From NCBI GenBank assembly GCA_965235115.1, contig OZ249436.1, positions 13,456,001 to 13,520,000 of the forward strand: DNA of 64,000 nucleotides. Reading direction: 5' to 3'. A model generated the notes under the pieces. It saw nothing but the letters and a program-made list of their open reading frames with translations. It was not told where the DNA came from and did not search any database. Positions 14,001 to 38,944 of the stretch are shown in pieces. How positions within the stretch are numbered: position 1 is the stretch's first letter; each line of letters begins with the position of its first letter. This stretch comes from Laetmonice hystrix (taxonomy: Eukaryota). The translations under genes and the position numbers were made by a program.

Positions 14001-14290
14001 CTTATGATGAAACATCTGATGAGCACCGTGCAACAAATCTTCTCTTTAGTACTGATGAGGACTTCAAACACATTGACATGAGCCGGTTTGGTCCCTTCAA
14101 TCCAACCCATGGTTTTTCCTCTTTCAAGTTCATCCCAGGGACTGAGGATTCAATCATGGTCGCCTTGAAGTCTGAGGAAGATGCTGGAAAAATAGTTTCA
14201 TATATCATGGCCTTCAACATGGATGGAGACTTCCTTATGGAAGAATCCAAGATTGCAGAAGTTAAGCTGGAAGGAGTAGAGTTTATATAA
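11064..14290 (+). CDS. CANT1: Soluble calcium-activated nucleotidase 1 (apyrase), 3 coding exons
   Basis: Exons 11064-11691, 12581-12784, 13920-14290 join in frame. N-terminal signal-anchor ([17 protein letters not shown]) and apyrase motifs [77 protein letters not shown]. Start codon uncertain (11064 or 11121). Confidence 0.95.
12095..12545 (+). mobile_element. Probable SINE remnant in CANT1 intron 1
   Basis: CTCCGGTTTCCTCC motif typical of V/CORE-type SINE bodies and an (ACCC)n tail. Boundaries approximate. Confidence 0.45.
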
Positions 14291-19100: not shown

Positions 19101-20555
19101 ATAATTACTTTGGGTAGAGATTCTGTGTTTCCTTTACACTGTGTAAAGAAGTGTTAAGGTAATTTTCCACAGAATTTCAACTACATTTACTATTTAGCAC
19201 TGTCTCTGCCAATGTTATAGAAATGCTGGGCCGTAAAGCACAATAAATAAAATTGGTTTACATTTGGATTGTTCTGCGTGAGGCAAATATTTTCAATTAA
19301 TCAGCTATCATTGCAGCCTACCAATATTGTTCATCCTCTAGCATCACAGTAGACGTGTTATTTCCTCATTAGTTTTTTAAAAGTACCGCAAGATGAAGAA
19401 GTAGACACATATCATAATTCAGAACAAAACACAAACAACTGCTTTGTATGTAAGATGCATATATACAAAAAAAACATTAACTTGCCTCGAATAATGTGTT
19501 TAATGGTGCCTACCCGATCTTCTACTTTTCAGACAAGTACCTGGTAGTTCAGGTGCTACCACCTAGCGTTACGTATTACTCTGTCTTAACTTTCTTGGCA
19601 TTTCATTCACTCAAGAGAAATTGTAGGAAAGTGGATCACTCATGGCCATAAGAGGCCAGCTAAATGTAACACCATCTCACTGGTAGACTCTCTCGAGGGA
19701 AGCCTTGTAAGAACAGAACAAGTGTATGTATACGAGTGTATCAAGGATGGACTTAAAGAGCAGACTCAAAATTTCACTTCACTTCCCAATCCTGAATAAC
19801 ACAATTGTATTTCGGGGTAGGTCCTCACTGTTGCTTCATTTGAGTGGATATTCTTTATATTAGTGCAGTAAAAACTGCAAACATCAATTACCAGTACTGC
19901 CATCAGCACAAGCAAAACAAATCAACTTACTTGTAGACTCTATGAACAGGTTAGCAACGTGACAGTAATTGACGGATCCGCTTATACAGAAGTTTTCAAG
20001 TCTGTTTGCAGGCCGAGATCGATAAACCTGATCGAAGTAAAACAAAGTGAATATCTTCGACTTCTATGCATACTTGAAACACGTGTATATAATCAGCACT
20101 TGCCAGAGGTCAATTTCATTTCCTGTATATAGTCCTGTATATTGTTCGACACCAGGCTCCCCAGACTCGGCTAGCTTTTATTGCATTACCTCCCAAGTGC
20201 CAAAACCAACAGACATTACTCATCAAATGAATTCTTTTGCCATGAACATTACATTGAAGTAACATCACATCACCAGGAGGCAACCGACATTCAGGAAAAA
20301 AGATAACGCCTGGCGCAAGAATGGATATTCAATCAACAATTTCCTTGAATAAATCATTCTTTTTTTGTCCATGTTCCTGAAAGATTTCATCTGATTTTAA
20401 GCAGTGATATGAAGAACAGACTGCTATAGGAGCCTGTTTCATGTGGATGACGAAGAAAGCCTATTGAATGCAATGTCCAAGGACAGGAATCGGTGAGAAG
20501 TTGGATCACTTCAAGTATAGGCCAGTAGTCGGTGTTGGACGTGCCGACCAGATCT

Positions 20556-23500
20556 TTACTGAATCACCTTCAGTACCTTGCCAATGGCAATTGTTTTACC
20601 TGAAAGAAGAAAGATATTTCTCAATAAATACTTCAATAAATTACCGAAAATGTTCATCATGCTAATGGATTCTTGGGATATGGAAAATTAGGAATTTAGT
20701 GCGACAGTCCTGAAGCATTCTGTACAGCTCTATGTAGAACCAGATGCCATATTAAATCAAAATCTTTATTGAATGAATCAGACCTCGACTGAATAGTTGT
20801 GCATAGTGGGTGAATAATCTGTGGGAGCTGCAAGCAATGTGTTCTACCTTCATCTCTGAGTGTGAACCGTCCCATCTGGGGGAACTCTTTGAAGGCCTCC
20901 AGGCAGATGGTGCCTCCTGTCACCTCCAGCCTCACGATGGCTATTTGGTCCTGCTTCACAAACCTAGGCCGAACCTTGGACTTTTCGCCAGTTTTACGGT
21001 CAATCAGACAAATAAGGTTCTGAAAAGAACATGAAAGACATACACCGATAATGAATATCGTTTATAAAAAGTGCATACCATCCATTTCCCTTATCAGATT
21101 AGTTTTATAGTTTATTTCATTATATTTGGTTGCTTGATGCGGAGGCATTGATAGCAGGTTACCAGCTTACCCAGTACATATCTAGTATAGGAGAGATTAC
21201 ATGCCATCCACTAACCTTGATTGTACACTCTTCCGCACATGTATGAATATGCATTACTGCACTATAACCAGCACAGATGATGGACTTGTGTTCTAAAATG
21301 ACAATCTGGAATGTAAAAAATGTATTCAAGAATGGCATTAGTGTTGTTTTTTTACCCTTTACTTACCCAACAATTTTTAATGAATAACCCTTCCTAAGAG
21401 ATCAACTAAAGGGGGAAGAAAGTGTCTGTATTGGACCAGTGATCGCCACATTGGTCACGGATGTAAAGGATGGATACACATGTATCAGGATTCTTCCCTC
21501 GCGTCAAAACGACTGACCGTAAAACATAGGCTGGACGAAATATTGTAGGCGACACATGTGTAGGGAGCACAGATCTATGAACGTGTTATCTCAGAATAAT
21601 CATTTTTTCCACATGACTTCTTCAGACAGGGATAACTTTAACATCATTGACAACATTTCTGGGCTGGATCCAGCAAATATCACGTGGTCAGGCTCATGCA
21701 AAGTTAAACACTTTCTCTGAGACAACATACACGCGAGTTTAACCATTTCACTCAGCCATAACGGCCAATAGTTTCTAATATTCAATAAATATCGCACTCT
21801 AATGAAGACAGTGGCCTAACTAAGGTCTTGTTATTAATGACATCGTTTATTTGCACAGGAGTCGGTAACAGACCAACTGGTTATGAATTAGTGGCCTCCC
21901 ATTCACTTCTAGAAAACTTAATGATATCAATAATAACAAAACCTTAATCAGACGGTCCCCAGGTGTTAAAATAGTAAGGATATTATGTAAGGTAAAGACA
22001 ATGAGTCTGCCACTTTGTCCCGATCAGTACTTTTATGTAAGCTAGGAAACTGACCTCTATAAAAGACCGATACCGGTAGCAACTATTGAGGCAGTTTAAG
22101 TGTTATCTCAGATCAATTGATGTCCACAGCCCAGAGGGTTCAGACAGGGATAACTTGTAGCATCACCGGTAACACTCGACTCAACTGCTGACAATAGTAA
22201 TACTACTCCTGCGACATGTAAAAAAAAATTAGTCTTCTATTTTCAATATACTTAATTGAATGTTTACCTTGATGAACAAGATCCCTCACCTAGTGAAGTA
22301 TTCTTCACCGTTATCTATCAGTATCTGTTTTTAAGTGATTAAACAATTTACTAACAAGGAGTTTACATGAAAGTTGACTGCAGTTATCATCTCAGACATA
22401 CATTTCCTATCCACATTTGACAAGGATACCATGCCTTTACTATAGTTACACGTAGCCAACATCCCCGAATTAAGAAAGGGCTAATTGCAGTGGGCAAATT
22501 ACTTTTTAATACGTGATAAGATTGAAGTAAAGGAAAGTCAAGACACAAAACACAATCACACCTTCATTCATTCATTACTGTCATCTCAGAGATAAGCTTT
22601 CTGTCCACATTTCTGATTGTTCAGACAGGGATAACTTGAGACATCATTGACAACACAGCTTTCTTAGTTACATGTATCCAGTGTCCCAGACCTGACACAA
22701 ATACTTGACAGAATCATCCACACATTCAGACCCTGCCAACATACAGGAGCAATTCCTCTTGCTCTCATCCACTCCTGTCAATTTGAAAGGTATCAGTCCT
22801 GTAACCCAACATATGGGAGCTAGTGATCGCTCCTGTGCTCATTTTATAAGGCAGACACTACACACGTGACATCCTAGAAAATAGAGGCTAGTGATTTACT
22901 TAGGGTCTAGAAAGATATTTTTTGGCTACACTAATTACTTCTCAATAATATGAGAGATCAAAGTGAATAGAATTCTTTTAAATTCTAATCGGAAAGTCAT
23001 GGGAGTATGTGCCAATTGCAATCATACTTTCTTTTGCTCAGTTACTGTCATCTCAGAGATAACTTTTGCTGTAATATGACTATCAACTTTATTACCCGTA
23101 CATCAACAAGAACAGCGTAAGCTAACAGGGAAAAGGCTCCACATCCCAGTGAGAATTCCAAGTTTAGTTTGTGTTATCTCAGATGAGTACAACATGTCCA
23201 CAGTACACAAAATGTTCAGACAGGGATAACTTGTAGCATCACTGACAACACTTCATTGAATTCAAGTAAATACATTTAATCTTAATGCACAAACTAAGTA
23301 TAAGATTAGATCTCTGTTAATACAGTACCCAACATTCCAAACCTGACACAATTCTTGACGCAATAGTCACACATGTTTAATCCAAGAATTAAGAGAATAA
23401 GAAGATTTAGCTTTTTATAGTTACACTTTTTCACACTGAAATTAAAGATGGCATGTGCCACATGCAATCACCCTTTCATTCATCCATTACTGTCATCTCA

Positions 23501-26500
23501 GAGATAAGCTTTCTGTCCACATTTCTGATTGTTCAGACAGGGATAACTTGAGACATCATTGACAACACAGCTTTCTTAGTTACATGTATCCAATGTCCCA
23601 GACCTGACACAAATACTTGACAGAATCATCCACACATTCAGACCCTGCCAACATACAGGAGCAATTCCTCTTGCTCTCATCCACTTCTGTCAATTTGAAA
23701 GGCATCAGTCCTGTAACCCAACATATGGGAGCTAGTGATCGCTCCTGTGCTCATTTTATAAGGCAGACACTACACACGTGACATCCTAGAAAATAGAGGC
23801 TAGTGATTTACTTAGGGTCTATAGCTCATATTTTTTGGCTACACTAATTTCTTCTCAATAATATGAGAGATCAAAGTGAATAGAATTCTTTTAAATTCTA
23901 ATCGGAAAGTCATGGGAGTATGTGCCAATTGCAATCATACTTTCTTTTGCTCAGTTACTGTCATCTCAGAGATAACTTTTGCTGTAATATGACTTTCAAC
24001 TTTATTACCCGTACATCAACAAGAACAGCGTAAGCTAACAGGGAAAAGGCTCCACATCCCAGTGAGAATTCCAAGTTTAGTTTGTGTTATCTCAGATCAG
24101 TATATGTCAACAGTACACAAAATGTTCAGACAGGGATAACTTGTAGCATCACTGACAACACTTCATTGAATTCAAGTAAATACATTTAATCTTAATGCAC
24201 AAACTAAGTATAAGATTAGATCTCTGTTAATACAGTACCCAACATCCCAAACCTGACACAATTCTTGACGCAATAGTCACACATGTTTAATCCAAGAATT
24301 AAGAGAATAAGAAGATTTAGCTTTTTATAGTTACACTTTTTCACACTGAAATTAAAGATGGCATGTGCCACATGCAATCACCCTTTCATTCATCCATTAC
24401 TGTCATCTCAGAGATAAGCTTTCTGTCCACATTTCTGATTGTTCAGACAGGGATAACTTGAGACATCATTGACAACACAGCTTTCTTAGTTACATGTATC
24501 CAATGTCCCAGACCTGACACAAATACTTGACAGAATCATCCACACATTCAGACCCTGCCAACATACAGGAGCAATTCCTCTTGCTCTCTTCCACTCCTGT
24601 CAATTTGAAAGGTATCAGTCCTGTAACCCAACATATGGGAGCTAGTGATCGCTCCTGTGCTCATTTTATAAGGCAGACACTACACACGTGACATCCTGGA
24701 AAATAGAGGCTAGTGATTTACTTAGGGTCTAGAAAGATATTTTTTGGCTACACTAATTACTTCTCAATAATATGAGAGATCAAAGTGAATAGAATTCTTT
24801 TAAATTCTAATCGGAAAGTCATGGGAGTATGTGCCAATTGCAATCATACTTTCTTTTGCTCAGTTACTGTCATCTCAGAGATAACTTTTGCTGTAATATG
24901 ACTATCAACTTTATTACCCGTACATCAACAAGAACAGCGTAAGCTAACAGGGAAAAGGCTCCACATCCCAGTGAGAATTCCAAGTTTAGTTTGTGTTATC
25001 TCAGATCAGTATATGTCCACAGTACACAAAATGTTCAGACAGGGATAACTTGTAGCATCACTGACAACACTTCATTGAATTCAAGTAAATACATTTAATC
25101 TTAATGCACAAACTAAGTATAAGATTAGATCTCTGTTAATACAGTACCCAACATTCCAAACCTGACACAATTCTTGACGCAATAGTCCCACATGTTTAAT
25201 CCAAGAATTGAGAGAATAAGAAGATTTAGCTTTTTATACAGTTACACTTTTTCACACTGAAATTAAAGATGACATGTGCCACATGCAATCACCCTTTCAT
25301 TCATCCATTACTGTCATCTCAGAGATAAGCTTTCTGTCCACATTTCTGATTGTTCAGACAGGGATAACTTGAGACATCATTGACAACACAGCTTTCTTAG
25401 TTACATGTATCCAATGTCCCAGACCTGACACAAATACTTGACAGAATCATCCACACATTCAGACCCTGCCAACATACAGGAGCAATTCCTCTTGCTCTCA
25501 TCCACTCCTGTCAATTTGAAAGGCATCAGTCCTGTAACCCAACATATGGGAGCTAGTGATCGCTCCTGTGCTCATTTTATAAGGCAGACACTACACACGC
25601 GACATCCTAGAAAATAGAGGCTAGTGATTTACTTAGGGTCTATAGCTCATATTTTTTGGCTACACTAATTACTTCTCAATAATATGCGAGATCAAAGTGA
25701 ATAGAATTCTTTTAAATTCTAATCTGAAAGTCATGGGAGTATGTGCCAATTGCAATCATACTTTCTTTTGCTCAGTTACTGTCATCTTAGTGATAACTTT
25801 TGCTGTAATATGACTATCAACTTTATTACCCGTACATCAACAAGAACAGCGTAAGCTAACAGGGAAAAGGCTCCACATCCCAGTAAGAATTCCAAGTTTA
25901 GTTTGTGTTATCTCAGATGAGTACAACATGTCCACAGTACACAAAATGTTCAGACAGGGATAACTTGTAGCATCACTGACAACACTTCATTGAATTTAAG
26001 TAAATACATTTAATCTTAATGCACAAACTAAGTATAAGATTAGATCTCTGTTAATACAGTACCCAACATTCCAAACCTGACACAATTCATGACGGAATAG
26101 TCACACATGTTTAATCCAAGAATTGAGAGAATAAGAAGATTTAGCTTTTTATACAGTTACACTTTTTCACACTGAAATTAAAGATGACATGTGCCACATG
26201 CAATCACCCTTTCATTCATCCATTACTGTCATCTCAGAGATAAGCTTTCTGTCCACATTTCTGATTGTTCAGACAGGGATAACTTGAGACATCATTGACA
26301 ACACAGCTTTCTTAGTTACATGTATCCAATGTCCCAGACCTGACACAAATACTTGACAGAATCATCCACACATGCAGGGTCGCAGACCCTGCCAACATAC
26401 AGGAACAATTCCTCTTGCTCTCATCCACTCCTGTCAATTTGAAAGGCATCAGTCCTGTAACCCAACATATGGCAGCTAGTGATCGCTCCTGTGCTCATAT

Positions 26501-29500
26501 ATGGCAGCTAGTGATCGCTCCTGTGCTCATTTTATAAGGCAGACACTACACACGTGACATCCTAGAAAATAGAGGCTAGTGATTTACTTAGGGTCTATAG
26601 CTCATATTTTTTGGCTACACTAATTACTTCTCAATAATATGCGAGATCAAAGTGAATAGAATTCTTTTAAATTCTAATCTGAAAGTCATGGGAGTATGTG
26701 CCAATTGCAATCATACTTTCTTTTGCTCAGTTACTGTCATCTCAGAGATAACTTTTGCTGTAATATGACTATCAACTTTATTACCCGTACATCAACAAGA
26801 ACAGCGTAAGCTAACAGAGAAAAGGCTCCACATCCCAGTGAGAATTCCAAGTTTAGTTTGTGTTATCTCGATGAGTACAACATGTCCACAGTACACAAAA
26901 TGTTCAGACAGGGATAACTTGTAGCATCACTGACAACACTTCATTGAATTCAAGTAAATACATTTAATCTTAATGCACAAACTAAGTATAAGATTAGATC
27001 TCTGTTAATACAGTACCCAACATTCCAAACCTGACACAATTCTTGACGCAATAGTCACACATGTTTAATCCAAGAATTAAGATAATAAGAAGATTTAGCT
27101 TTTTATACAGTTACACTTTTTCACACTGAAATTAAAGATGACATGTGCCACATGCAATCACCCTTTAATTTATCCATTACTGTCATCTCAGAGATAAGCT
27201 TTCTGTCCACATTTCTGATTGTTCAGACAGGGATAACTTGAGACATCATTGACAACACAGCTTTCTTAGTTACATGTATCCAATGTCCCAGACCTGACAC
27301 AAATACTTGACAGAATCATCCACACATTCAGACCCTGCCAACATACAGGAGCAATTCCTCTTGCTCTCATCCACTCCTGACAATTTGAAAGGCATCAGTC
27401 CTGTAACCCAACATATGGGAGCTAGTGATCGCTCCTGTGCTCATTTTATAAGGCAGACACTGCACACGTGACATCCTAGAAAATAGAGGCTAGTGATTTA
27501 CTTAGGGTCTATCAGAGTATGTGAACACCGTGGGACCGACGGCCCGAGACCCGCTAAAAACCCGTCGGTCCGACAGACCTTCCCATTTAGCAGGCCCGAT
27601 TGTCCCGCACACATTTGGCTGTTATGTACCCACCTAAGTCCCAAGTAGGCATCCATTGAGGAGAAGCTGCTCCACTACATGCAATAGACTCCACTACACT
27701 GTCCTTTAGCCAACCAGAGCACAGATATACATTTTATATTTATTTATACATTTATTCTATTGCACCTGGTAATGACACCAGCATAATAAAGACGTGTTAT
27801 ATTCATGAGCATGCGTTTTTGTGTAATTTTTGAAAAGTGACATATTTCAGTAGGTCAGACAGAACTCTGGTAGGTCCCCCAGACTTGTTACTTGTGCAGG
27901 ACCGCAGGTCCTGCAGAAATTTTGGCACTTTCACATACTCTGGTCTATAGCTCATATTTTTTGGCTACACTAATTACTTCTAAATAATATGAGAGATCAA
28001 AGTGAATAGAATTCTGTTAAATTCTAATCGGAAAGTGATGGGAGTATGTGCCAATTGCAATCATACTTTCTTTTGCTCAGTTACTGTCATCTCAGAGATA
28101 ACTTTTGCTGTAATATGACTTTCAACTTTATTACCCGTACATCAACAAGAACAGCGTAAGCTAACAGGGAAAAGGCTCCACATCCCAGTAAGAATTCCAA
28201 GTTTAGTTTGTGTTATCTCAGATGAGCACAACATGTATATGTCCACAGTACACAAAATGTTCAGACAGGGATAACTTGTAGCATCACTGACAACACTTCA
28301 TTGAATTCAAGTAAATACATTTAATCTTAATGCACAAACTAAGTATAAGATTAGATCTCTGTTAATACAGTACCCAACATTCCAAACCTGACACAATTCT
28401 TGACGGAATAGTCACACATGTTTAATCCAAGAATTGAGAGAATAAGAAGATTTAGCTTTTTATACAGTTACACTTTTTCACACTGAAATTAAAGATGGCA
28501 TGTGCCACATGCAATCACCCTTTCATTCATCCATTACTGTCATCTCAGAGATAAGCTTTCTGTCCACATTTCTGATTGTTCAGACAGGGATAACTTGAGA
28601 CATCATTGACAACACAGCTTTCTTAGTTACATGTATCCATGTGTCCCAGACCTGACACAAATACTTGACAGAATCATCCACACATGCAGACCCTGCCAAC
28701 AGACAGGAGCAATTCCTCTTGCTCTCATCCACTCCTGTCAATTTGAAAGGCATCAGTCCTGTAACCCAACATATGGGAGCTAGTGATCGCTCCTGTGCTC
28801 ATTTTATAAGGCAGACACTGCACACGTGACATCCTCGAAAATAGAGGCTAGTGATTTACTTAGGGTCTATAGCTCAGGTTTTTTGGCTACACTAATTACT
28901 TCTCGATAATATGCGCGATCAAAGTGAATAGAATTCTTTTAAACTCTGAAAGGCATGTGCCAATTGCAATCATGGCTGCCGGCACTTATTGAGAAGACTG
29001 AAATATCTTCTTAAAAAAATTAAAATTATACATATAATATGACCATGGTTTTGCAACATTAATACTACAAGCCAGTTCACTTTTCTTCAGCTTGCTGCAT
29101 TCTCAACTGGTTTTAATGATTTGCTGACTTGTCATCACTGATATGTCACCTCAGATAAAAGCTGCTTGTCCACATTTCTAACTTTCTTCAGACAGGGATA
29201 ACTTTGGGCATCATAGGTAACAAATACCAAAATCAGTTGTGCTACTTTCACCAATTAACCCTTTCTTCACTTCAATCACTTTTTCCCCCTCAAATTGTAG
29301 AAGCGCAGACGAATTGTTCTATCCCAATGAGCCTTCTTGAACAGCCCGTCTCTATCAAGATTCATCGAGTTACGAGGCCAGAGTTCCAGGAATTTTTCAG
29401 GATAAAATTGCGTTTTTCCAGGTCTTAAATTCTAATACCTTTCCCCCTTTCCAGGGGAAAATTACTTCATGATGAACGTAGTTATCTAGTAGGAAAATGG

Positions 29501-32500
29501 CTTAAATTCCATAGTTACAGGAATTTATACCTCATTACACATTTTTTAAACCTAAGCATTTTACTCTTTTTCCAAGGCTTTTCTGACTGACCTTAGGGGA
29601 CTTTCCCGTACACTATGACATGTCCCCCTCCCCTATTACAAACATAAATCGCTACCTATGGGTATTTTTATTAGCAGAATAACATACCTGGGCATCAAAG
29701 ACTTTCCCTATGTGGCATGGGTTGTCTGGGGAACAAATTACAAAACCTGGCGACACATCCTGAAAGAAATATAAATCTGTCAAAATATCTTAGAGATTGA
29801 ACGATAAAATAAGGTCCTCAGTGTTGCACCCGTCTATTGCTTAAACGTCAGTCTCTGTAATACATGATAGTATTTCCTTCAGAACACTTTCCTTACTAAC
29901 ATAAATACAACTAATCAATTAAAATTTTTCCTAAAAAAAAGGATCTATGAAAACCAAATTAGATAATACTCATTGCTTGATACAATTCCTTGATCCAACT
30001 GTATTAGAGATACCTTGCAAAACTACCAGTAATATAAATGGTACTCAGATGGCAAGAAGGGCTTGGGCTGATCCTCTGCCAACTTTGATACTCAAATCTA
30101 TTTACCACCTTCTAATTTCAAGAACTGGTCAAGGATACGGGTACATAGAAATCTACTGAAGGCTTTACAGTTATTATAAGCTGCAGGAAATCATAATAAT
30201 TACCTCTTCTTCAACATTCTTCAACTTGACCTTGACATTCTCGCCTGGGTTTGCTAAGTCTGTTTCCTCATCATCTGACCACAACTGCATTACTTCTACT
30301 AATGTCTGCAATACAACAAATTTTCAAAATCTAATTAGGCTTGGTTGTTATGTGACTATCTAATTCATTACCTTAGCAAGAACAGCGTAAGCCAACAGGG
30401 AAAAGGCTCCACGTCCCAGTGAGAATTCCAAGTTTAGTTTGTGTTATCTCAGATCAGTATATGTCCACAGTACACAAAATGTTCAGACAGGGATAACTTG
30501 TAGCATCACTGACAACACTTCATTGAATTCAAGTCAACACATTTAATCTTAATGCACACTAATATCACATTATGTTATTTGATATAGACAGCATATCTCT
30601 GGAATTAGTGTAAATCCTCCTCTTCGACTTTTCATGCTTGACTGGGAAGCTCAAAAGTTTGAATCATTAGAAAACTAATTCTGAGCCAGAATTGCAGTTT
30701 TTGGCTACTTACCCTGTTTGGCATAAGCATAACTGACAGTCCTCGAGAGATAACCCCTGATTCTACTTTGCCCAGTGCTATGGTTCCCATATCCTGAAAC
30801 AGAAAACACCTGTAGTAGCGACCCTTATTGATGGATAGTGGAAGGGTGTGTGTCAAGCAAACTTATGTGTAACTCACCATGTCATGTTGTATTATGTTTT
30901 ACCTGATCTTGAAAAATGACCTCACCTTGTACCTATCTACAATTGGTATTCTGATGGGCCCCTCTTCCATTCGATTCATTGTGGGCAAGTTGTCGATGTA
31001 ATCAATAAGTGAAGGCCCTGTGTACCAAGGGCACAGATCTTCGGTTGTCTCCTTCAGGTTAGCGCCGGTCAAACCAGATACTGGGATGTAGTAAATGTCT
31101 GTTTTCGGATTGAAGCCACACTTCTTTAGATAAGGCGTTAATTTCTCCTTGATCTCTCCAAACCTACAATGGTAAATACCAGGTCATCATGAAATGGTTC
31201 AGTTTTCAGAAATTTATTAAGCCAAGTGATAATCCCACAACATGAAAATGGGTACTAATTCTACTGTCACCAAGAGCTTTTTTCTCATCGTTGCCCTTTT
31301 TTCACAAAATTCTTTTACCTGGATTCATCCCATTGTACTGTAGAGTCGTCCATTTTATTCACTACAATGACTAAATGCTTGACGCCAGCAGTCTTGACCA
31401 GCATAGCATGTTCTCGTGTTTGTCCACCACGTTCAAACCCAGTTTCAAATTCCCCTTTTCTGGCAGAGATTACCTGGAGATAGAGGCATATTAAATATCT
31501 GGTTAGCGCAGTCATCACATCATTATCAACACCTTATACTAAATTTGTGTGTATGTTTTCTCTATGTATTTAGTAGACTTCCCAGTTCACCCAACAGCAA
31601 TGGCAGGTAAAACTGGGAGAAAAATTACTAAAAATATTTTAGGTGAGGGTTTTCAAAATACAGTGACCGATAGAACTTAACACTCTTTACGTACTAATAC
31701 AGCAAGGTCTGCTTGTGAGGCTCCACCAATCATGTTTGGCACGAAACTCTTGTGACCAGGGGCATCAAGAATGGTGAAGTGCTTGTTTTCTGTCTCAAAA
31801 TATGCTCGCCCAACTTCCACAGTCTTTCCTTTGTCACGCTCTTCTTGGTTTGTATCCAGAGCCCAGGACAAGTACCTGCATAACATAATAATCATGAGGA
31901 TACATCTCATCCATCTACATTTTTATGCATATATTGCAATCTTAATAATTCGAAAATCGGAACGTTCTGATTTTTTGCTATCTCGAAACATGAAAATCGG
32001 AACAATTCCGATTACATCGGAACGGTATGCCAACCCTGTCAGAGACAAGGACAGAATCATATATTATTAACAAATTGTAAACTATCGAGCAACCTGGCAA
32101 TAAAACGTCATCTGTTAACTTCCTTTGCATGTACAGTCAGACCTCGTTTATCCGAACAGCTTGGTGCCCACTAAAATGTGTTTGGATTGTGAAACATACA
32201 GATTACTGAATCACTTTAAATAGAAAATGGTAGAAGAGGTTACCAGAAAGCGTGTTCGGATTGTGAGGTATACAGATTAACGAAGCACGGATTAACGAGG
32301 TCTGACTGTATTGGAATTGTAATCCCTTGATAGTAGCACGTAAATGCATTGATTTCATTCTATTTCTTTTCTTTTAATAGTGTACTCAAATAAGTAGCCT
32401 TAAACTAAAACTCATCTTTCATAGTGATTTCTAAAAATGAACTCACCAACTTTCTCTGTTCTTTTCTTTGGCCTCCTTCTCATATTTCTCCAACGTACGT

Positions 32501-35500
32501 TTCTCAACTTTACCTGTCAGATACCTGAAAGTAAAATCATTTCAAAATAAAACGTAGCTCCAATATATTTTCATTCAAACAATACTCACTTATGTAAGGC
32601 TACTAACCAGGACAGCCACATATTGATTACTGAAATAAGCAAATATCACACTGCATAAGAGGTTGAATGATCCAGAAAAAGTTCTATGTTCTGCACTGTT
32701 TTCCCATTCAGCATTGAGTAAAAATACAATGTAACAAATAAATTTGTCAAAGCTTTACTTTTTGCAGCATAATTATATTTCTAATACAGTATATGTCTAC
32801 AAGAAAACAAAAATGATGACGCATCATCATTTCCCACGAAATGCCTCCTTAGCTTCTTCTTAATCTTTTTCTTACATGTTAAAATAATTCTATGCTTTGA
32901 AGCTGCTTACATTATATGGCCTCCAATAGTTGACTTTCCAGCATCTGTCAAAAAAGTGCATCTGTCATGATCAAAAATGTCAACATTTCCTATCTTGCTG
33001 GCATTACCATGCCAAGTCTAGTATCATTATATGTATACAAATATGATTTGGCAAGAAAAGAAAAACTCTGTCTTTAACACTTAATATCCATGACTGGTTG
33101 CACGATCTTTACTTCGACCAGCCTTTCTACTTATAATCTATGGTGCACATGTATGCACAACTGGGTACCTCAGAAGACTAGAGGTGTTATACGCATTTGG
33201 GCTTATACATTGTAATTGACTTTGCTATGTCTGAGATATTCCAGTATGGTTGTCCTCACTATAAAAACCCTTGAAAATATCTTACCAACGTGACCAATGA
33301 AGACAATGTTTACATGTTTCTTCTTTGTAATATCTGACTTCTTTTCCTTCAGTTTCTTTGGTTTTGTGACAGATGTGGCCATGTCACTCAGGGTATCGCT
33401 GGCCTCCATGTCATCACTTCCGTCCTCCTCCTCGTCACACGCCTTGTCTCCACCCCCACCGTCATCGGCAGTACTGCTCCCACTGCTTCCATTCTCGGCC
33501 CAATCCTCTGCAACCAGCCAGAATATATTACTGTAACAGTGATCTCCTTCTCAAGGTATGTATAAGGAGAAGGCAGTCAGAGACAAAACACTTATTTTTT
33601 AAAAAGTGCTTGCTATCAAAAACATTGCAGGGAAGTGGTGCACGGTTCAATGAAAAGTCTCTATTGATGTGTGATGCAGAAAATTTAGTTACAATTTGCC
33701 ATGCAGGACTACTTAATGTAAGCCTTGCTTAAGAATCCTGAAATATCAGTTTCCTGTTCAGATTTATCAGCATCGGCTTTCATTATCACTTACCTGGAGG
33801 TTGATCACCTCTATCCTCATCACCTGTAAAAACAAAAGATTAGTCTTACTATCTAGACTTATTTTAATTATGTGCACAGGTGATATTATGAGGAGATAGC
33901 CAGCCTTCTTTTAGTATAGAACCTAACGTATGATGAGTGTGCAGTTTGTGGCAAGTAAAAACACCCAATACAAACACACAGGCATTGCCCGAGTTCCACA
34001 ATTGTATCTACTGACTACGGATGATGCAGGGTACCACATGATGGCCATTTCTTAATAAAATTTTATCTCATTTGTCAGTATCACTAAAGAACATACTGAT
34101 ACATATCGTATTCACAGTTTTGGACCGTAAATCGTATCGTTCAGTGAAAAAATCGAGATTCGTGATTGTATCGATGAATCGTCCCTGCACTACTTTTATG
34201 TGACTGCAGATGCGAGTTTTCAGGGACATCAGACAAAATGTCAGACAAAATGTCAGACATTGAAAAGCTTTATGGTAGACATTTGGATCTTATGCCATTT
34301 CCTCTTTGATGAACAAGGTGGGGGGCGGGGGCTACCACAACCCAATCTCACCCATCTCTGCACCCTCCCCTTCCTCCAACCTACCTATATACTTTGGGTC
34401 TATGTGAGGCTTTTGTCACAGAATAGGTCAGTATATGTGCCGAAAACAGTTCTACCACTCCTAGCCCTGGACTCTCTATAGAGAACGATGGATTAACACC
34501 GTGCTGTGGTCCTGAGACCAACAGTACAATAGTACGGCCAACGGTTGTAAGAAAGTGATTGGTTCAGAATTAAAATTTATTTTATTATGCAGACACAATC
34601 ACAATGACAACGACACAATTACTAAAAATTGATTGTAGACCGTCACAATTAGACTGATATTAACCACTTAGGTAGCGGCTTTCATAACGCGCTCGGAAAG
34701 CACTGCCACTGGTAAACACAGTAATGTAGAGCTTATAAACATGGTAAGCCTTTTTTCTGATGTTTTAGGTAATATTTATGAAATAAAATAGTGTCTAAGA
34801 TATGGCATTGTCATGGTAGAAAAGGGTTTAAACATGATTTTCAGTGTATGGCCCCAGATCACAGCTCTCAGACCTCAACGTTCTGTCTCGGTCCTCGTGC
34901 TGTGATCTGGGGTCACACACTGAAAATCACGTTTAAACCCTTAGACCAAAGTTTAAGGTAACTTTGAACACTGAAAGAACGTTACACTTTTACATGACTT
35001 TCATTAGAAATCCTGAGAAACTTTTTTTTATAGTGGCAGGCCTCTTACACGACGGCATCGACGGCAGCAGCAGGACAAATTGGCCTGCATTAAAATGAAA
35101 CCCGTCGGCCATTGCAAATTTTGTGGACACAACATTTCGCTTACACAAACTAGCTTAACAACTAACTACTTCTATCACTAATGCTTATTCCCTAGAAACA
35201 TACTTTTACCTGTATTTGGACTTGGTTCCGTTTCCATTACTTCTGATGTAGGCACGGATTCTTCTTGTGCTGCAACAAGATGAGTTTTAATAGTTCTTAC
35301 ATGTTACAGCTATAAAAGGTAGACCAAGGACATTAAGATGAGGTCTCATCCTCACGGGACACATTGTAAAAAAAACTGATGTCTCACTATAGATATACCC
35401 ACTAGCGTAGACATCCTAACAAAAAAATTTTTGTTTCCGGTTTGTGGCCCCTCAAAAATAGGGTGAGCAGGTAAGGTTTTTATTTTAATTTATATTTTAT

Positions 35501-38500
35501 TAATTACAATTTATTATTACAATTGCATTGGTGGTACAGGGCTTTAAATAATTTTCTATGGGAGGGCGGGTGGAAAGTACGCCAGCGCACATTTTGTTCA
35601 GTATCGCGAAACGCGATACAAAATGGGGTATTCACTAACCAATTTCCAAATTGATTAGATCTTATTGCTAATCAAAAAAGTTCAGCCCTAAACTCTGTAG
35701 CTATGATTGATCTGAACTAGTTGACACTCGTTCTCACTGCAAGTGAAGATGACCTCAGATATGGAAACAGCCTCAAGCCAACAACCACTCACTGACTCAG
35801 AATCTCAAATAATATTGTCGGCCTACCGTAACCTTAATCATGATCATATTACACAATTTATATTTATAGTACATATTTTTTAATTAAAAAAATGCTACTC
35901 AATATTAGCAATTGCTAATCAATTTCTGAATTGATCAGCGATTGTTGCCAATCAAAATTTTCAAAACAAAATGTGCGCTGTATGCCGTTCTGTGTCTCCA
36001 TGTGCGTACTATACGCCCTACCTTCAAAGGTACGGGTGTATTTTGCACACCCTTGCTTACTCGCCCGGGCTGCTCCAACTCGGACACATGAACGTTACCG
36101 TTCCTGCATCCAATGCTTTTAGCTCGGCATGGAGGGCTTGGCCAGTGAGTGGGAGGGTTTCCATTTCAAATTAGGCTGTTTCAAGTTCCCCATTATTATG
36201 CATCAATGAGGAACGAGAAACTATGGAGAGCAAACTGGTCAAGGACACTGGGGTTGGGGCATGCCCCATATCTGCATACGATTAGAATATATGTTCATAT
36301 TTGATGTTTTTACAATTTATTTCTCTGCATATTTTGCTAGAACGTCTGCATATTTATGCCAATATGCACACAGGCCTCGAATTACACGACGGCATCGGCC
36401 ATCGTGCATTTTCCATGTACCGTAAATTTGCCGCCGTGCCCTGGAAAAATCTGATGTTGATTCTTATGTATCGACGGCAGTTTTTGCCGTGCCCCTTTCA
36501 ACTTCTAATTCGAGGCCTGCGTACACTAACGGAATCCCGAGTGGTAACTCTGTTGCAATGTTACAAAAGTGACTGGAGAAAATTTTGAGTCGTGAGGTTT
36601 TAACAGGGTCGCTCGGAAACCGGAAACAAACATAATTTTTTGTTTCGCCTTATGAAGTAACACTGATTGTCATGATTCCATCAAGTTTGCAGCAAGCAAA
36701 GTTGAGCATATTCCAGGGCAGACGAAATGGCACCTTACTGTCACAACTTTGGTTATTCCACAGACAATAAAAGCATGAAAATCAGTGTCTATTTTTCAGG
36801 TTATAACAGGGTTTTTTTTCATTTCTAGGCTCTTTATGCTTTTAGGTAGGTAAAACTGCCAAGCAGTACTTAAAATTATACCTAGTATTTACCTACCACA
36901 TATAACAGACTAAACACACTTGCCACTAGTACTAAATCATGTACGTAAAAAGACCAATATGTAATGAATTGAATACCAACTATAAATCAGTCCGAGGGTA
37001 CATTTACACAAAACTTCTCAAGCAGATACAGCCATATCCAACATCAAATTAGATGACATTATGATTGCTTTATTTTCCACTTAACCTATCAGATTTTGCA
37101 TTTCTTGCCAAACACATACATTGAGTGTCTGTTCAGTTTAACTCCCAAAGTGTGAGCCTGATTCACATTTCAATCACATTACTGATCACAAAAGCAAAGA
37201 AGTTCATATCCCCGACAATTGTGATGTCACAGCAAACTTGATTGGTAGAATCTGGGGCCTGTTTCGCTCCTCGCGTCAAAACGGTTACCACACATGGGCT
37301 ATCAGCTACCTATGATGGAGAAAATTTCACTTGGTGAATAGGAGACATTTGGCTGGTCACCTGTCATTTGGGTGACGTCGCTGGATGAGTGAAATGGGAC
37401 ATTACATTATGCAACCCTTCAACTAATTCCCCAACAATAGGCCAAGAAAAAGGTTTCCCAACTGTTCAGGTCAACAGCAACAAAATGTGCCGAATCACAG
37501 ATTTGCCAAGCCTAGATCAAGGCAACAATTAGTTGAGGCAGGGTGCTGGAACTTTGTCATTTAAGGCAAATTTTAAAATAAGTTTCTTGATTTACAATCT
37601 TATTTTTTGGATTGTCGACCCTAGTCCTTTGATGTGATGGGTGGGTCAGAGACTCCACGTTCCATATTCGTCATGTCCCAGTACGTCAGACTCCATGTCC
37701 AAAGTGTACATTTCATTCTCTAGTCAATATTTTTCCTTATAAATAAAAGTTTTGAGCAATGATTTCATCACTCAGTGGGTATTGCGACCAGCTGATTGCA
37801 AGGAATTCCTATTATCTGAAGTGCCTAGACCTAGTCAGAGATTTTTCTCCATGTTGTCGATCAACCACATGAAATGTCTGGCCCTGTCTAAAGACTGTCG
37901 CCCCTATACTCCCATATCAGGAACATGGCCGAGCTGACCACCAGGGCCCAGTTTCACTAAGCCGGCGACGTCGTGAAATGGGACGTTGCCGGCCCATATA
38001 AGGTAATATGTCGCCCTTTCTTACGACGTGCCCCATTGCTTTAACGTTGGCGACATTTTGATGTGCGACGTTGCCAGATTCGTAAAACGGGGCCCTGACT
38101 CAGGGCGAGTGGGACATGTAGGCCTATCTGGGTCGGGACATGGCACACATGGCCATGGAAAATGGAGGCCGACAACCAGATGGTTGCATAACTCCCTCCC
38201 AATGCTTACATTAAGTGTGTATATACAATGTCTTACTTCACTAAATAAAATAAATATTCAGGTTTGAAACCTAAAACACGTTATTTGATATTATAACTTA
38301 AGATTGATCATGACATGATGACGTGTGTACTGTGTAGAAATGGTGTCACTGTCACTGTCAGGGATGGGGTCTGGCCTCACTCACCGACTCAAACAGGCAA
38401 AATAACTTTTGTCTCTTCTGCTGTTCTGGGTTGGTTAAAATGGTTTGTGTATAATACAACTGACATCACCATTATTAAACAGTATGATAATCAGGAAAGC

Positions 38501-38944
38501 CCCGTGTGTTTTATGAGCAATCTCATTCTGGGATTCTTACCGACCACGTCAATGTGGCCTCAATGCCGGCCCATGGAAGTCGCCATCTTGGACTGGGCAT
38601 GGTCACTCATCAAGACACTCCCTGAACTTAGTTATATGGCAACTCAAGACAAAACCCATTGCAAAGATAGCGTGGAAAGCAACAAATAAATGTCATTCAT
38701 TGTCCGACAGTTGTCAGGCGATCTTATTTCGGTGCTTACCCTCGGATGAGGTTACATTTTGGTGGGAAGAAGGCACGAATGCTTTCGCGTAAGGATTCTG
38801 ACCAGGAATGAATGGAGCAGCATTCACATTCAGGCCCGACAGTGACATCGTTGCTGCGGTGACGCCGACTTGATCGCCAGAACTGCCATCATCCTGCTCG
38901 TCCCAAGATTCTGGTGGAGTATTACTATTATCTTGTACGTCCAT
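20556..38944 (-). CDS. GSPT1: Eukaryotic peptide chain release factor GTP-binding subunit eRF3, 15 coding exons
   Basis: Exons 38944-38740, 35269-35210, 33823-33794, 33507-33286, 32944-32911, 32524-32447, 31875-31695, 31473-31319, 31163-30926, 30793-30713, 30305-30204, 29759-29688, 21305-21216, 21019-20848, 20599-20556. Tandem PAM2 motifs ([21 protein letters not shown]), G1 [27 protein letters not shown]-terminal [17 protein letters not shown]. Confidence 0.97.
21584..21655 (-). ncRNA. SNORD1: Box C/D snoRNA, SNORD1/snR38 family (divergent copy 1)
   Basis: Minus strand: tgttgtca-ATGATGT(C)-taa-AGTTATCCCTGT-CTGA(D')...GTGGA(C')...CTGA(D)-gataaca. Terminal stem present; guide complementary to 28S ACAGGGAUAACU. 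Confidence 0.88.
22100..22175 (-). ncRNA. SNORD1: Box C/D snoRNA, SNORD1/snR38 family (divergent copy 2)
   Basis: gtgttaccg-GTGATGC-taca-AGTTATCCCTGT-CTGA...GTGGA...CTGA-gataacac. Confidence 0.85.
22579..22655 (-). ncRNA. SNORD1: SNORD1/snR38-family snoRNA, array type A1
   Basis: tgttgtca-ATGATGT-ctca-AGTTATCCCTGT-CTGA-acaatcagaaat-GTGGA-cagaaagcttatct-CTGA-gatgaca. Confidence 0.85.
23171..23251 (-). ncRNA. SNORD1: SNORD1/snR38-family snoRNA, array type B1
   Basis: gtgttgtca-GTGATGC-taca-AGTTATCCCTGT-CTGA...GTGGA...CTGA-gataacac. Confidence 0.85.
23491..23567 (-). ncRNA. SNORD1: SNORD1/snR38-family snoRNA, type A2
   Basis: Same sequence as A1. Confidence 0.85.
24084..24161 (-). ncRNA. SNORD1: SNORD1/snR38-family snoRNA, type B2
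   Basis: B-type with C, D' and D boxes and guide intact; the putative C' GTGGA is changed to GTTGA. Confidence 0.8.
24401..24477 (-). ncRNA. SNORD1: SNORD1/snR38-family snoRNA, type A3
   Basis: Same sequence as A1. Confidence 0.85.
24993..25070 (-). ncRNA. SNORD1: SNORD1/snR38-family snoRNA, type B3
   Basis: B-type, boxes and guide intact. Confidence 0.85.
25312..25388 (-). ncRNA. SNORD1: SNORD1/snR38-family snoRNA, type A4
   Basis: Same sequence as A1. Confidence 0.85.
25905..25985 (-). ncRNA. SNORD1: SNORD1/snR38-family snoRNA, type B4
   Basis: B-type, boxes and guide intact. Confidence 0.85.
26227..26303 (-). ncRNA. SNORD1: SNORD1/snR38-family snoRNA, type A5
   Basis: Same sequence as A1. 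Confidence 0.85.
26860..26939 (-). pseudogene. SNORD1: SNORD1/snR38-family copy B5 with broken box D
   Basis: Plus strand reads tgttatctcgatgag instead of tgttatctcagatgag. A 1-nt deletion converts box D CTGA to CGA (real mutation or sequencing error). Confidence 0.7.
27181..27257 (-). ncRNA. SNORD1: SNORD1/snR38-family snoRNA, type A6
   Basis: Same sequence as A1. Confidence 0.85.
27513..27942. mobile_element. Non-autonomous DNA transposon (MITE) inserted in the snoRNA array
   Basis: TIR CAGAGTATGTGAA / TTCACATACTCTG and 6-bp TSD GTCTAT. The empty site is visible in the other units. Confidence 0.9.
28210..28296 (-). ncRNA. SNORD1: SNORD1/snR38-family snoRNA, type B6
   Basis: B-type with a longer, hybrid segment upstream of box D; boxes and guide intact. 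Confidence 0.82.
28538..28614 (-). ncRNA. SNORD1: SNORD1/snR38-family snoRNA, type A7
   Basis: Same sequence as A1. Confidence 0.85.
29144..29222 (-). ncRNA. SNORD1: SNORD1/snR38-family snoRNA (divergent copy C)
   Basis: tgttacct-ATGATGC-ccaa-AGTTATCCCTGT-CTGA...GTGGA...CTGA-ggtgaca. Terminal stem keeps pairing despite a different sequence. Confidence 0.88.
30441..30518 (-). ncRNA. SNORD1: SNORD1/snR38-family snoRNA, B-type copy in eRF3 intron 10
   Basis: Matches B3. The flanks (~30375-30558) are also homologous to the array unit. Confidence 0.88.
32134..32308. mobile_element. Tc1/mariner-pogo type MITE
   Basis: TIR CAGTCAGACCTCGTT(T/A)ATCCG flanked by TA on both sides. Confidence 0.85.
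34822..34942. repeat. ~120-bp long hairpin, probably part of a repeat element
   Basis: AAGGGTTTAAACATGATTTTCAGTGTATGGCCCCAGATCACAGC ... GCTGTGATCTGGGGTCACACACTGAAAATCACGTTTAAACCCTT. Confidence 0.85.
35418..36652. mobile_element. TIR element with a nested MITE (36371-36519)
   Basis: Outer arms AACAAAAAA...TTTGTTTCCGGTTT / AAACCGGAAACAAA...TTTTTTGTT. Inner TIR CAGGCCTCGAATTA / TAATTCGAGGCCTG. Confidence 0.6.
37942..38097. mobile_element. Harbinger-like MITE
   Basis: Ends CAGGGCCCAGTTTCAC / GTAAAACGGGGCCCTG with further internal inverted similarity. Confidence 0.6.

Follow-up and report, generated by a model that had tools for sequence, protein, structure and literature searches.

The eRF3 locus and its intronic snoRNAs

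The stretch of DNA analysed here (64 kb, hereafter the window) carries on its minus strand a gene for the termination factor eRF3, two introns of which hold 17 sense-strand copies of a C/D snoRNA. The features are as follows.

20500..38950, minus strand: host gene, eRF3/GSPT1-like (Pfam domains and best solved relative)
38714-38950 (PAM2 motif), 30793-30713, 30305-30204 and 29759-29688, minus strand: among the eRF3 exons
21305-21216, 21019-20845 and a last exon from 20596, minus strand: also among the eRF3 exons
30712-30306, minus strand: 407-nt intron with copy 1, GT..AG, removed in RNA contig record 25
30442..30517, minus strand: snoRNA copy 1 (type A1), sole copy in the 407-nt intron; RF00213 50.1 bits
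21306..29687, minus strand: 8,382-nt intron with 16 snoRNA copies, GT..AG; RNA contig joins 29688 to 21305
29144..29222, minus strand: snoRNA copy 2, old unique copy, first in the 8,382-nt intron, stem TGTTACC/GGTGACA; RF00213 47 bits
22553..28973, minus strand: tandem array, delimited by repeat comparison; 14 snoRNA copies are assigned to its types
28973-28615, minus strand: 5′ partial unit of the array, 91% identical
28614-22656, minus strand: six full units of ~911 bp, 97.8-99.1% mutual identity
22655-22553, minus strand: region of the seventh type B copy
28538-28614, 27181-27257, 26227-26303 and 25312-25388, minus strand: type B snoRNA (box C ATGATGT; n = 7, all 77-nt bodies identical); RF00213 44.3 bits each
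24401-24477, 23491-23567 and 22579-22655, minus strand: the remaining three type B copies; RF00213 44.3 bits each
28211-28295, 26861-26938 (box D broken) and 25906-25984, minus strand: type A snoRNA in the array (box C GTGATGC; n = 7 in four variants, including copy 1 outside the array); RF00213 38.2-50.7 bits for the type
24994-25069, 24085-24160 (C′ TGTTGA) and 23172-23250, minus strand: the other type A copies in the array, matched by RF00213
24864..24943, minus strand: decayed third snoRNA-like remnant, one per full unit, recognised by intra-unit similarity; guide and D′ lost
22101..22174, minus strand: snoRNA copy 16, old, A-like, one C-A stem mismatch; RF00213 42.9 bits
21584..21655, minus strand: snoRNA copy 17, most diverged, with the best Rfam score, 53.7 bits (RF00213)
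27512..27953, no strand assigned: 442-bp dispersed repeat in the first full unit; 40 scored genome copies

The host product contains the Pfam domains PAM2, GTP_EFTU, D2 and D3. Its best solved relative is eRF3a (E 5e-31), with eEF1A at 6e-10, and its named relatives are ERF3A-like, the nearest being those of annelids and molluscs. A second high-identity eRF3 locus is absent from the genome, and the gene is single-copy. An apyrase gene was confirmed as a neighbour of the locus by a protein atlas search.

Read-derived evidence comes from four runs of one sample, all in the form of assembled contigs and none recorded as RNA; only X4 is called RNA-like, because one X4 contig is spliced. RNA contig record 25 of this run (2,248 nt, depth 44.2) contains every one of the six GT..AG junctions predicted, 29688|21305 among them. 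No junctions within the array are listed for X4 contigs, 29688 being joined directly to 21305, and minor isoforms are possible. Within the array, X4 covers only part of the dispersed repeat and 251 nt represented by one further contig (25349-25599, depth 6.35).

Family assignment and box anatomy

The sequence AGTTATCCCTGT, searched for with up to one mismatch, occurs 17 times between 21626 and 30498, always exactly and always on the minus strand; no shuffle out of 100 reached this number (mean 0.31, maximum 3). These guide matches and the two spliced introns bear out the layout proposed in the initial annotation, 16 copies in one eRF3 intron and one in another, and the 17-copy intronic snoRNA observation is confirmed. 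The same annotation had placed the copies in the snR38/SNORD1 family and named an Infernal search with the Rfam snR38 model as a check. In an E-value scan over 12 kb, RF00213 aligns end to end with 17/17 copies (38.2-53.7 bits, E 6e-07 to 0.0022), in agreement with that placement. Five copies pass the gathering score of 45 bits, at 47-53.7 bits, and the other 12 lie just below it (38.2-44.3 bits, E 8.7e-05 to 0.0022 in 12 kb), with full-length alignments.

A purpose-built covariance model, R1, recovers all 17 copies from the 64 kb with a single extra match at E 0.95, and finds no convincing further copies in the window. When the genome was searched with RF00213, only the window copies scored above the cut-off among the 62 of 113,589 candidates that were scored, a count to be read as a floor. 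The second genomic site of the 16-mer proved to be a 57-bp minisatellite with neither a box C nor an Rfam match, and was rejected as a snoRNA.

Box C is present in all copies as ATGATGT, GTGATGC or ATGATGC, with the UGAUG core in 17/17; the seventh base is U or C, never A. A D′ box CTGA adjoins the guide in each of the 17 copies compared. The C′-like box is TGTGGA in 16 copies and TGTTGA in the copy at 24085-24160, and box D is CTGA in 16, its T being missing at 26861-26938. Together with the terminal stem, these elements give each copy the full set of parts initially described, one box D being broken. Across nine distinct sequences, 98.4% of the 63 cells of the 7-bp stem are paired, compared with 17.5-72.6% when the partner is slid. 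The stem variants initially cited as pairing-preserving changes, tgttgtc/gataaca and tgttacc/ggtgaca, are indeed present; covariation as such is not significant, with one pair changed on both sides and 104 of 500 shuffles equalling it.

The guide and its target in 28S rRNA

The 12-nt guide, the D′ box and the next A (AAGTTATCCCTGTCTGAA) are invariant in the 17 copies, and the internal spacers differ. The complement of the guide has a single match in the 28S rRNA of the organism itself, where all seven distinct copies tested form a perfect 12-bp duplex. By the D′+5 rule the fifth paired nucleotide is the middle G of ACAGGGAUAACU, near nt 3656 in the 28S match, as had been proposed. In an alignment with E. 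coli 23S, this G falls 5 nt 5′ of the second A in GAUAAC, taken to be A2451. On that presumed numbering, the alignment upholds the claim that the target lies in the peptidyl-transferase centre (PTC), five nucleotides from the A2451 equivalent. The yeast table of PMC8307265 agrees, assigning Gm2815 in the PTC to snR38, and tables in PMC3511168 and PMC8307265 support the identity of the target with the snR38 site. The human equivalent of yeast Gm2815 is Gm4362.

A second guide before box D was considered and rejected: the 18 nt preceding that box in the seven distinct copies give only scattered 9-12-nt rDNA matches (G-U allowed), and no rRNA target is shared among them.

Repeat unit, constraint and history of the cluster

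Fourteen of the 17 copies trace to a 911-bp unit repeated ~6.5 times in tandem (~98% identical), in which two types of snoRNA are accompanied by a decayed remnant. The remnant (unit positions 501-560 against 56-115, 78.7-82% identical at six places) resembles type B at its 3′ end and is detected neither by Rfam nor by model R1. In copies 2, 16 and 17, likeness to the unit is confined to the snoRNA body and ends at the snoRNA ends. Elsewhere in the genome the unit is represented only by scraps of 50-65 nt. The 442-bp repeat in the first full unit is dispersed: its 40 scored genome copies, a count that includes the one in the array, are 94-100% identical, and its contig depth is ~3000 compared with ~55.

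Variation within the unit is uneven. Type B has 0/77 variable columns among the six full units, and the type A array copies have 0/40 in their 5′ half and 5/37 in their 3′ half, which is thus more variable than the spacers (38/757). Type B and the type A 5′ half taken together have 0/117 variable columns, a contrast with the spacers that depends on a post-hoc split (chance ~0.003). Copy 1 and copy 10 are identical over 76/76 positions of the body and over 136/149 of the flanks (chance ~0.001). The alignment of the copies, these flanks and the divergent spacers agree with the original view that conservation is limited to guide and boxes. At ~2% divergence the 14 copies are so young that selection on them individually is unreadable; the guide-less remnant in each unit shows the fate of unconstrained copies.

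These relationships suggest a stepwise history. Old local duplications would have produced copies 2, 16 and 17 and types A and B, after which a unit with two live snoRNAs and one dead may have formed. A recent ~6.5-fold tandem amplification of the 911-bp unit, probably by unequal crossing-over, would have followed, and a 236-bp piece appears to have been copied into, or from, the neighbouring intron. The recurrent amplification suggested at the outset is a fair description of old duplicates, a three-member unit, a 911-bp tandem expansion and a copy in another intron.

Processing and release

We consider it likely that the locus is a genuine sense-strand intronic cluster of snR38/SNORD1-family genes in the sole eRF3 gene, whose guide directs methylation at the PTC G, which grew stepwise and which is released from the host intron. 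Sequence and contig data show its anatomy, family match, target site, intron layout, splicing and repeat structure, and the confinement of conservation to functional elements; the assembly of snoRNPs, their processing, the methylation and the number of productive copies are what we infer for it. The eRF3 pre-mRNA would serve as the snoRNA precursor. By analogy with what has been inferred for clustered intronic snoRNAs in Drosophila and rice, the 8.4-kb intron may be cut between snoRNPs after splicing, with exonucleases trimming the pieces to individual snoRNAs. Pairing of the guide with 28S over 12 bp would then direct fibrillarin to 2′-O-methylate the middle G of the target. For rice and Drosophila, PMC2780460 and PMC5932544 refer to clusters of snoRNA genes within introns (Huang et al. 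2004/2005, cited there), and the initial statement that the array needs an unusual processing route was in view of PMC2780460 too strong. In mammals, according to PMC11028025, an intron with two snoRNAs yields sno-lncRNAs after exonuclease trimming, not two free snoRNAs. No unusually stable fold that might mark cleavage was found in the spacers, whose predicted stability does not exceed that of shuffles (z 0.09 and 0.52).

One alternative is that the near-identical units are an over-expansion in assembly and the true array much shorter. The ~98% identity of the units would allow this, and none of the read-derived contigs listed runs across the array. The units are nevertheless distinguishable, because they differ at 38/757 spacer columns and by the 442-bp insertion and a 32-bp duplication, and copies 1, 2, 16 and 17 are unique sequence. 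Over the stretches of the array with read-derived contigs, the 31-mer multiplicity of the assembly is 4.1-4.9, and contig depth is ~4.5x (X1), 5.4x (X2) and 3.1-3.7x (X3) that of the flanking single-copy contigs. These runs are from one sample, possibly the assembled one, and contig depth is not equal to copy number; depth and assembled copy number roughly fit, which is the outcome of the read-depth check proposed at the outset, and we regard over-expansion as very improbable. A less remote alternative, though still an unlikely one, is that mature snoRNA comes from a single copy or from very few (for instance from copy 1, or from copies 2 and 17 at the ends), the units being young and neutral and the internal copies degraded with the intron or kept in a sno-lncRNA bounded by the outermost snoRNPs. 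The units, at 97.8-99.1% identity, are too young for visible selection; one box D is broken, one C′ box altered, the type A 3′ half variable, and a dead copy is already present in each unit. The main mRNA contig, moreover, splices out the whole array, without internal exons that would give copies introns of their own, and paired mammalian intronic snoRNAs end as sno-lncRNAs (PMC11028025). Against this, the diverged lineages 2, 16, 17, A and B, with flanks that cannot be aligned, share the intron and retain guide, boxes and stem, which argues that several snoRNAs per intron have long been under constraint. The seven type B bodies are identical, and guide conservation would be unneeded in a sno-lncRNA. 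We favour release of individual snoRNAs from the cluster.

Hosts of related snoRNAs

Background given with the initial annotation, namely snR38 in TEF4 in yeast, human SNORD1 in three copies in separate introns of the non-coding SNHG16, and one snoRNA per intron as the usual state, is borne out, in part by PMC2705663 (TEF4) and by the review PMC11028025. The latter also places snoRNAs generally in translation and RNA-processing genes. In a survey in which 101 of 400 computed ORFs, from 6 of 12 loci, were run against Pfam, five metagenome relatives had a nameable host: PRP19 (L034), RPLP0 (L071), an eIF3 subunit (L036), an RRM protein (L031) and eRF3 (L016). L016, an unrelated contig, has a single snR38-type snoRNA in a different eRF3 intron, the last, in which the guide is absent in the window. 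In L016 the distance between snoRNA and 3′ splice site is ~70-80 nt, which no copy here matches: the 3′ ends of copies 1 and 17 lie at 136 nt and 278 nt respectively. The short spacer between box C and guide and the TGTGGA C′ box recur among metagenome homologues, and several of these have a seventh box C base other than A.

The variety of these hosts, as judged from sequence, indicates that host choice for this snoRNA family is labile, and its presence in eRF3 is best explained by the preference of snoRNAs in general for translation genes with high expression, and not by a circuit specific to termination. A link between the eRF3 gene and the dosage of a PTC-modifying RNA had been suggested; in its full form, the amplification would be adaptive and tie guide-RNA dosage to eRF3 expression through a dedicated regulatory link. 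The host is eRF3 and the target is in the PTC, and the recurrence in L016 means that the eRF3 association is not unique to this genome. The L016 snoRNA, however, is single-copy and in a different intron, the other homologues are hosted by PRP19, RPLP0, an eIF3 subunit, an RRM protein, TEF4 in yeast and SNHG16 in human, and the snR38-bearing intron had no effect on suppression of release-factor mutants in yeast, according to PMC2705663. The tie between termination factor and PTC modification is not borne out by hosts that vary among the five relatives, and such a dosage link is highly improbable. A literature search at title and abstract level found no record of eRF3 or GSPT1 as a snoRNA host. 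It is conceivable, although we hold it rather doubtful, that eRF3 is a conserved host of a PTC-site guide snoRNA in a lophotrochozoan lineage and that one of its introns is a polycistronic precursor of up to 16 same-guide snoRNAs.

Significance and comparison with known systems

The array is an unusually large new example of an arrangement that flies and plants are already known to have. Neither the snoRNA nor its target is new, and multi-snoRNA introns are known too, so our understanding of snoRNAs is unchanged. The locus does offer a natural case for how many snoRNPs are released from one intron in non-fly animals, whether singly as free snoRNAs or within long RNAs capped by snoRNAs, and shows snoRNA family birth and death at one place, with long-constrained copies next to a dead one, a recent tandem burst and a copy between introns. 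Recurrence of the eRF3 host in L016, in another intron, offers a way to study how snoRNAs move within a host gene. Arrays of this kind are likely to be under-called by annotators, because 12 of the 17 copies here fall just below the Rfam cut-off. If the 16 snoRNAs do share a polycistronic precursor, an endonucleolytic, splicing-coupled release pathway so far undescribed beyond insects and plants would be required, and the cluster would be one of the largest same-guide rRNA-modification clusters in an animal coding gene.

The closest counterparts are yeast snR38, human SNORD1A/B/C and Arabidopsis snoR38Y (RF00213), which have the same C/D architecture, a single D′-adjacent guide, the identical 12-nt antisense element, and the same PTC-region G as target. 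The copies described here differ in a box C-to-guide spacer of 4-5 nt (~18 in most homologues found), a seventh box C base that is not A, a C′ box TGTGGA, and their number: 17 in one coding host, compared with one in yeast TEF4, three in SNHG16 introns and one in chicken. Like the intronic clusters described for rice and Drosophila melanogaster, the locus has several sense-strand snoRNA genes per intron (16 between 29687 and 21306), an arrangement that implies release beyond exonuclease trimming of the lariat alone. In contrast to those clusters, all its members have the same guide, 14 belong to a 911-bp tandem repeat of recent origin, and the animal seems to be a lophotrochozoan, not an insect. 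SNORD115 and SNORD116 (SNHG14) provide a parallel for tandem amplification of a C/D snoRNA unit, with subfamilies and partial duplications; each of their copies has its own intron, the host is non-coding and imprinted, and there is no rRNA target. The present array instead lies wholly within one coding-gene intron, has a canonical rRNA target and, in the spliced contig, has no exon for each unit. Sno-lncRNAs likewise contain more than one snoRNA per spliced intron, whereas the invariant guide in every copy here argues for guide function.

Host gene and intron structure

The minus strand of the window holds, in pieces of open reading frame, a PAM2 motif, an EF-Tu GTPase domain, domain 2 and an eEF1A-like C-terminal domain. 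Among solved structures, one of these exons matches eRF3a (E 5e-31), eEF1A (6e-10) and HBS1L (1.5e-09). Its named relatives in the databases are annotated 'ERF3A-like', those of annelids and molluscs ranking first, and it is by these relatives that the animal is judged lophotrochozoan-like. At high identity, eRF3 is found at a single locus in the genome. Exon ends placed by peptide position give GT..AG introns throughout, and a 2,248-nt contig (depth 44.2) from an RNA-like run, X4, has its junctions exactly where these ends predict.

Splice junctions in the X4 contig (minus strand)
30925 joined to 30792
30713 joined to 30305; 407-nt intron, holding copy 1
30203 joined to 29758
29688 joined to 21305; 8,382-nt intron, holding 16 copies
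21216 joined to 21019
20845 joined to 20596

The array is thus spliced out of the main mRNA as one intron, and no exon is seen inside it in the spliced contig. The arrangement proposed in the initial annotation, 16 copies in one intron and one in another, all sense to the host, is correct as judged from the guide positions and this contig.

Three further features lie in or beside the gene.

13865-14290, plus strand: apyrase/CANT1-family exon downstream of eRF3 (protein atlas)
39902-40084, plus strand: first exon of a divergently oriented gene on the other side of eRF3, presumably LUC7L3 from the way it reads
30867-30909: DNA joint skipping 43 bp within a 132-nt intron of eRF3, the one upstream of exon 30793-30713; the depth is about half in DNA runs X1 and X3, greater in X2, and a heterozygous indel is the probable cause

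The snoRNA copies

The 12-mer AGTTATCCCTGT occurs 17 times in the window, each time without mismatch and on the minus strand, between 21626 and 30498, and at most three times per shuffle in 100 shuffled windows. The Rfam snoR38 family, RF00213, matches all 17 copies end to end (38.2-53.7 bits, E ≤0.0022 in a 12-kb E-value scan), which supports their assignment to the snR38 family; five exceed the gathering score and 12 fall just below this curated cut-off of 45 bits. All 17 share one layout.

Layout of the snoRNA copies, 5' to 3'
1. 7-nt 5' stem arm
2. box C with a UGAUG core (ATGATGT, GTGATGC or ATGATGC)
3. 4-5-nt linker, then the guide
4. box D' CTGA, then a variable spacer
5. C'-like TGTGGA, then a second variable spacer
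6. box D CTGA, then the 3' stem arm

One copy (26861-26938) has a box D without its T, and in another (24085-24160) C' reads TGTTGA. Our own covariance model, built from the nine distinct copy sequences and run over both strands of the whole window, recovers the 17 copies and one further match at E 0.95.

Across the genome (627 Mb) there are 26 occurrences of the 16-mer of guide plus D', 17 of them in the window and nine in a 57-bp minisatellite. Among the 62 of 113,589 candidates that were scored, only the window copies exceed the RF00213 cut-off, a count to be read as a floor. The minisatellite (G000:C1:71619532-71620232; about 4500-5300 of locus L009) comprises some 14 units, nine of which carry the exact 16-mer AGTTATCCCTGTCTGA followed by AAC. 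It lacks both box C and a stem, is not matched by Rfam and was rejected as a snoRNA; its 16-mer is either an amplified chance match (about 0.3 expected per genome by our own arithmetic) or a snoRNA fragment turned satellite.

The tandem array and its copy number

The centre of the large intron is built of tandem units. In each, a type-B snoRNA is followed 241 nt downstream by one of type A and, some 50 nt beyond that, by a decayed snoRNA-like remnant that keeps a type-B-like 3' end and has lost guide and D'.

Features of the array
28973-28615: partial unit on the 5' side, 91% identity
28614-22656: six full units of about 911 bp, mutual identity 97.8-99.1%; a seventh type-B copy lies at the other end
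27512-27953: 442-bp dispersed repeat that breaks the first full unit
26467-26530: perfect 32-bp tandem duplication in the second full unit, which helps to tell the units apart

The unit was considered as a mobile element and rejected, being found at the eRF3 locus only, apart from 50-65-nt scraps elsewhere in the genome. The 442-bp repeat has 40 scored genome copies on many contigs (94-100% identity, window copy counted) and is a young non-autonomous element, probably still mobile; part of it is covered by a contig of the RNA-like run. Copies 2, 16 and 17 resemble the unit in the snoRNA body only, their BLAST matches ending at, or 2-6 nt from, the snoRNA ends. Around copy 1, in the neighbouring intron, 236 bp match the type-A part of the unit at 90.7% identity. 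Contigs of all three DNA runs join 21658 to 21917 with a depth near half that of the flanks, apparently because of a heterozygous insertion/deletion of 258 bp (21659-21916) that starts 3 nt upstream of copy 17, and loose ends suggest that the inserted piece is a repeat.

The near-identical units could in principle be an over-expansion by the assembler, a concern raised in the initial annotation, and no read-derived contig from X1-X4 was found to span the array. Contig depth inside it is 269.9 in X1, 278.5 in X2, and 106 and 89.8 in X3, against 52-66, 40-58 and 19-40 for flanking single-copy contigs, giving ratios of roughly 4.5, 5.4 and 3.1-3.7. The comparison is rough, contig depth not being a copy number, and the runs are not independent, coming from one sample that is perhaps the assembled one; the ratios are nevertheless near the 31-mer multiplicity of the assembly over the same stretches (4.1-4.9), with no sign of over-expansion.

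Constraint on the copies

The nine distinct copy sequences agree throughout in AAGTTATCCCTGTCTGAA, in the box cores and in most of the stem, while both internal spacers differ freely. Copies 1 and 10 have identical 76-nt bodies between aligned flanks that differ at 13 of 149 positions and by indels; the chance of such an unchanged body is about 0.001 by our own arithmetic. The six full units show no variable column in type B (77 nt) or in the 5' half of type A (40 nt), compared with 38 of 757 in the spacers and five of 37 in the 3' half of type A, a split that was picked after the data were seen. Covariation in the stem is weak, with one pair changed on both sides (U-A to C-G, copy 2), which 104 of 500 shuffles equalled, and a half-step, C-A, in copy 16. 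The remnant in each unit shows the fate of a copy without constraint. Taken together, this evidence supports purifying selection, initially claimed for the guide, on at least the five old lineages; it says little on the 14 young copies individually.

The rRNA target

The large-subunit rRNA genes of the genome were located with RF02543. In the rDNA locus examined, the guide complement ACAGGGATAACT occurs once, within GUUACCACAGGGAUAACUGGCUUGUGG, and all seven distinct copies tested pair with this 28S site over exactly 12 bp. No rDNA match before box D is common to the copies tested, which makes these single-guide snoRNAs. The fifth paired nucleotide upstream of D' faces the middle G of ACAGGGAUAACU, at about nt 3656 of the 4,358-nt LSU match on contig C13. 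Aligned with E. coli 23S rRNA (record annotated at 2,909 nt; raw position there 2449), the target G lies five nt 5' of the second A of GAUAAC, which we take to be A2451 in standard numbering. The target predicted initially, in the peptidyl-transferase centre (PTC), is upheld by this single pairing, by the alignment and by published site tables: one gives Arabidopsis Gm2805, human Gm4362 and yeast Gm2812 for RF00213 members (PMC3511168), and another lists yeast 25S-2815 Gm as guided by snR38, more than 85% modified, conserved in human and located in the PTC (PMC8307265).

Relatives and their host genes

Metagenome contigs scanned for box C, a gap, the guide and D' gave at least 117 stretches, and 116 loci were analysed. 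At least 14 locus ids, some from the same contig or near-duplicates, have two or more guide 12-mers, with at most three among the matches listed. The spacer between box C and guide, 4-5 nt here, is 3-7 nt in at least 23 matches from at least 19 locus ids (L034 and L035 being one contig), and several of these relatives share with the present copies a TGTGGA C' box and a non-A seventh base of box C.

When a related full-length eRF3 (P0002) was compared with the 116 loci by tblastn, one, L016, matched at E 1e-05 or better. This animal-like, unrelated metagenome contig carries eRF3 exons and, in the last intron, a single sense-strand snoRNA (1854-1928; RF00213 35.1 bits, E 0.0022) 80 nt before the 3' splice site. 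Its gene has no intron at the array-bearing position, and the guide was not found in the last eRF3 intron of the window. Pfam searches of same-strand ORFs from six further loci (101 of 400 ORFs) named four hosts, and none for L039 and L021.

Other hosts of snoR38 relatives
L034: PRP19, two copies in two introns
L071: RPLP0, two copies in two introns
L036: eIF3 subunit
L031: RRM protein

In L039 a SNORD49 (63.7 bits) lies 175 nt away from the snoR38 copy.

These varied hosts indicate that the snR38 family moves among housekeeping translation and RNA-processing genes, normally at one copy per intron, and eRF3 is one recurring host among several. At title and abstract level, the literature was not found to name eRF3 or GSPT1 as a snoRNA host. 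The dedicated eRF3-to-PTC dosage link proposed in the initial annotation draws no support from the host survey, and in yeast, according to a passage in PMC2705663, removal of the snR38-bearing intron did not explain a release-factor phenotype.

Processing and comparison with known systems

The evidence best supports an ordinary guide for rRNA methylation, its gene multiplied within the host. The host pre-mRNA would be the precursor, and because 16 snoRNPs would share the 8,382-nt intron, release of free snoRNAs would require cuts between them. Alternatively, the intron could yield a long RNA with the outer snoRNPs as its caps, and sno-lncRNAs can arise from two snoRNAs in one intron, as stated in PMC11028025; no unusually stable fold was found in the spacers. 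That five diverged copies with a full set of elements have long been kept in this one intron argues that several may be productive.

The comparisons first drawn for this array are confirmed in the relevant parts of the sources: the yeast TEF4 intron carries snR38 (PMC2705663), introns of human SNHG16 give SNORD1A-C (PMC7154078), and animals have predominantly one snoRNA per intron (PMC11028025). Chicken is listed with one copy of this snoRNA (PMC2653536). Several snoRNAs in one intron are described as 'intronic gene clusters' in rice and Drosophila (PMC2780460; reference list of PMC5932544). We conclude that the array is a real feature and a large new case of this known arrangement, and that it offers a useful system in which to follow how snoRNA genes arise and die, and how introns with several snoRNAs are processed, beyond insects and plants.
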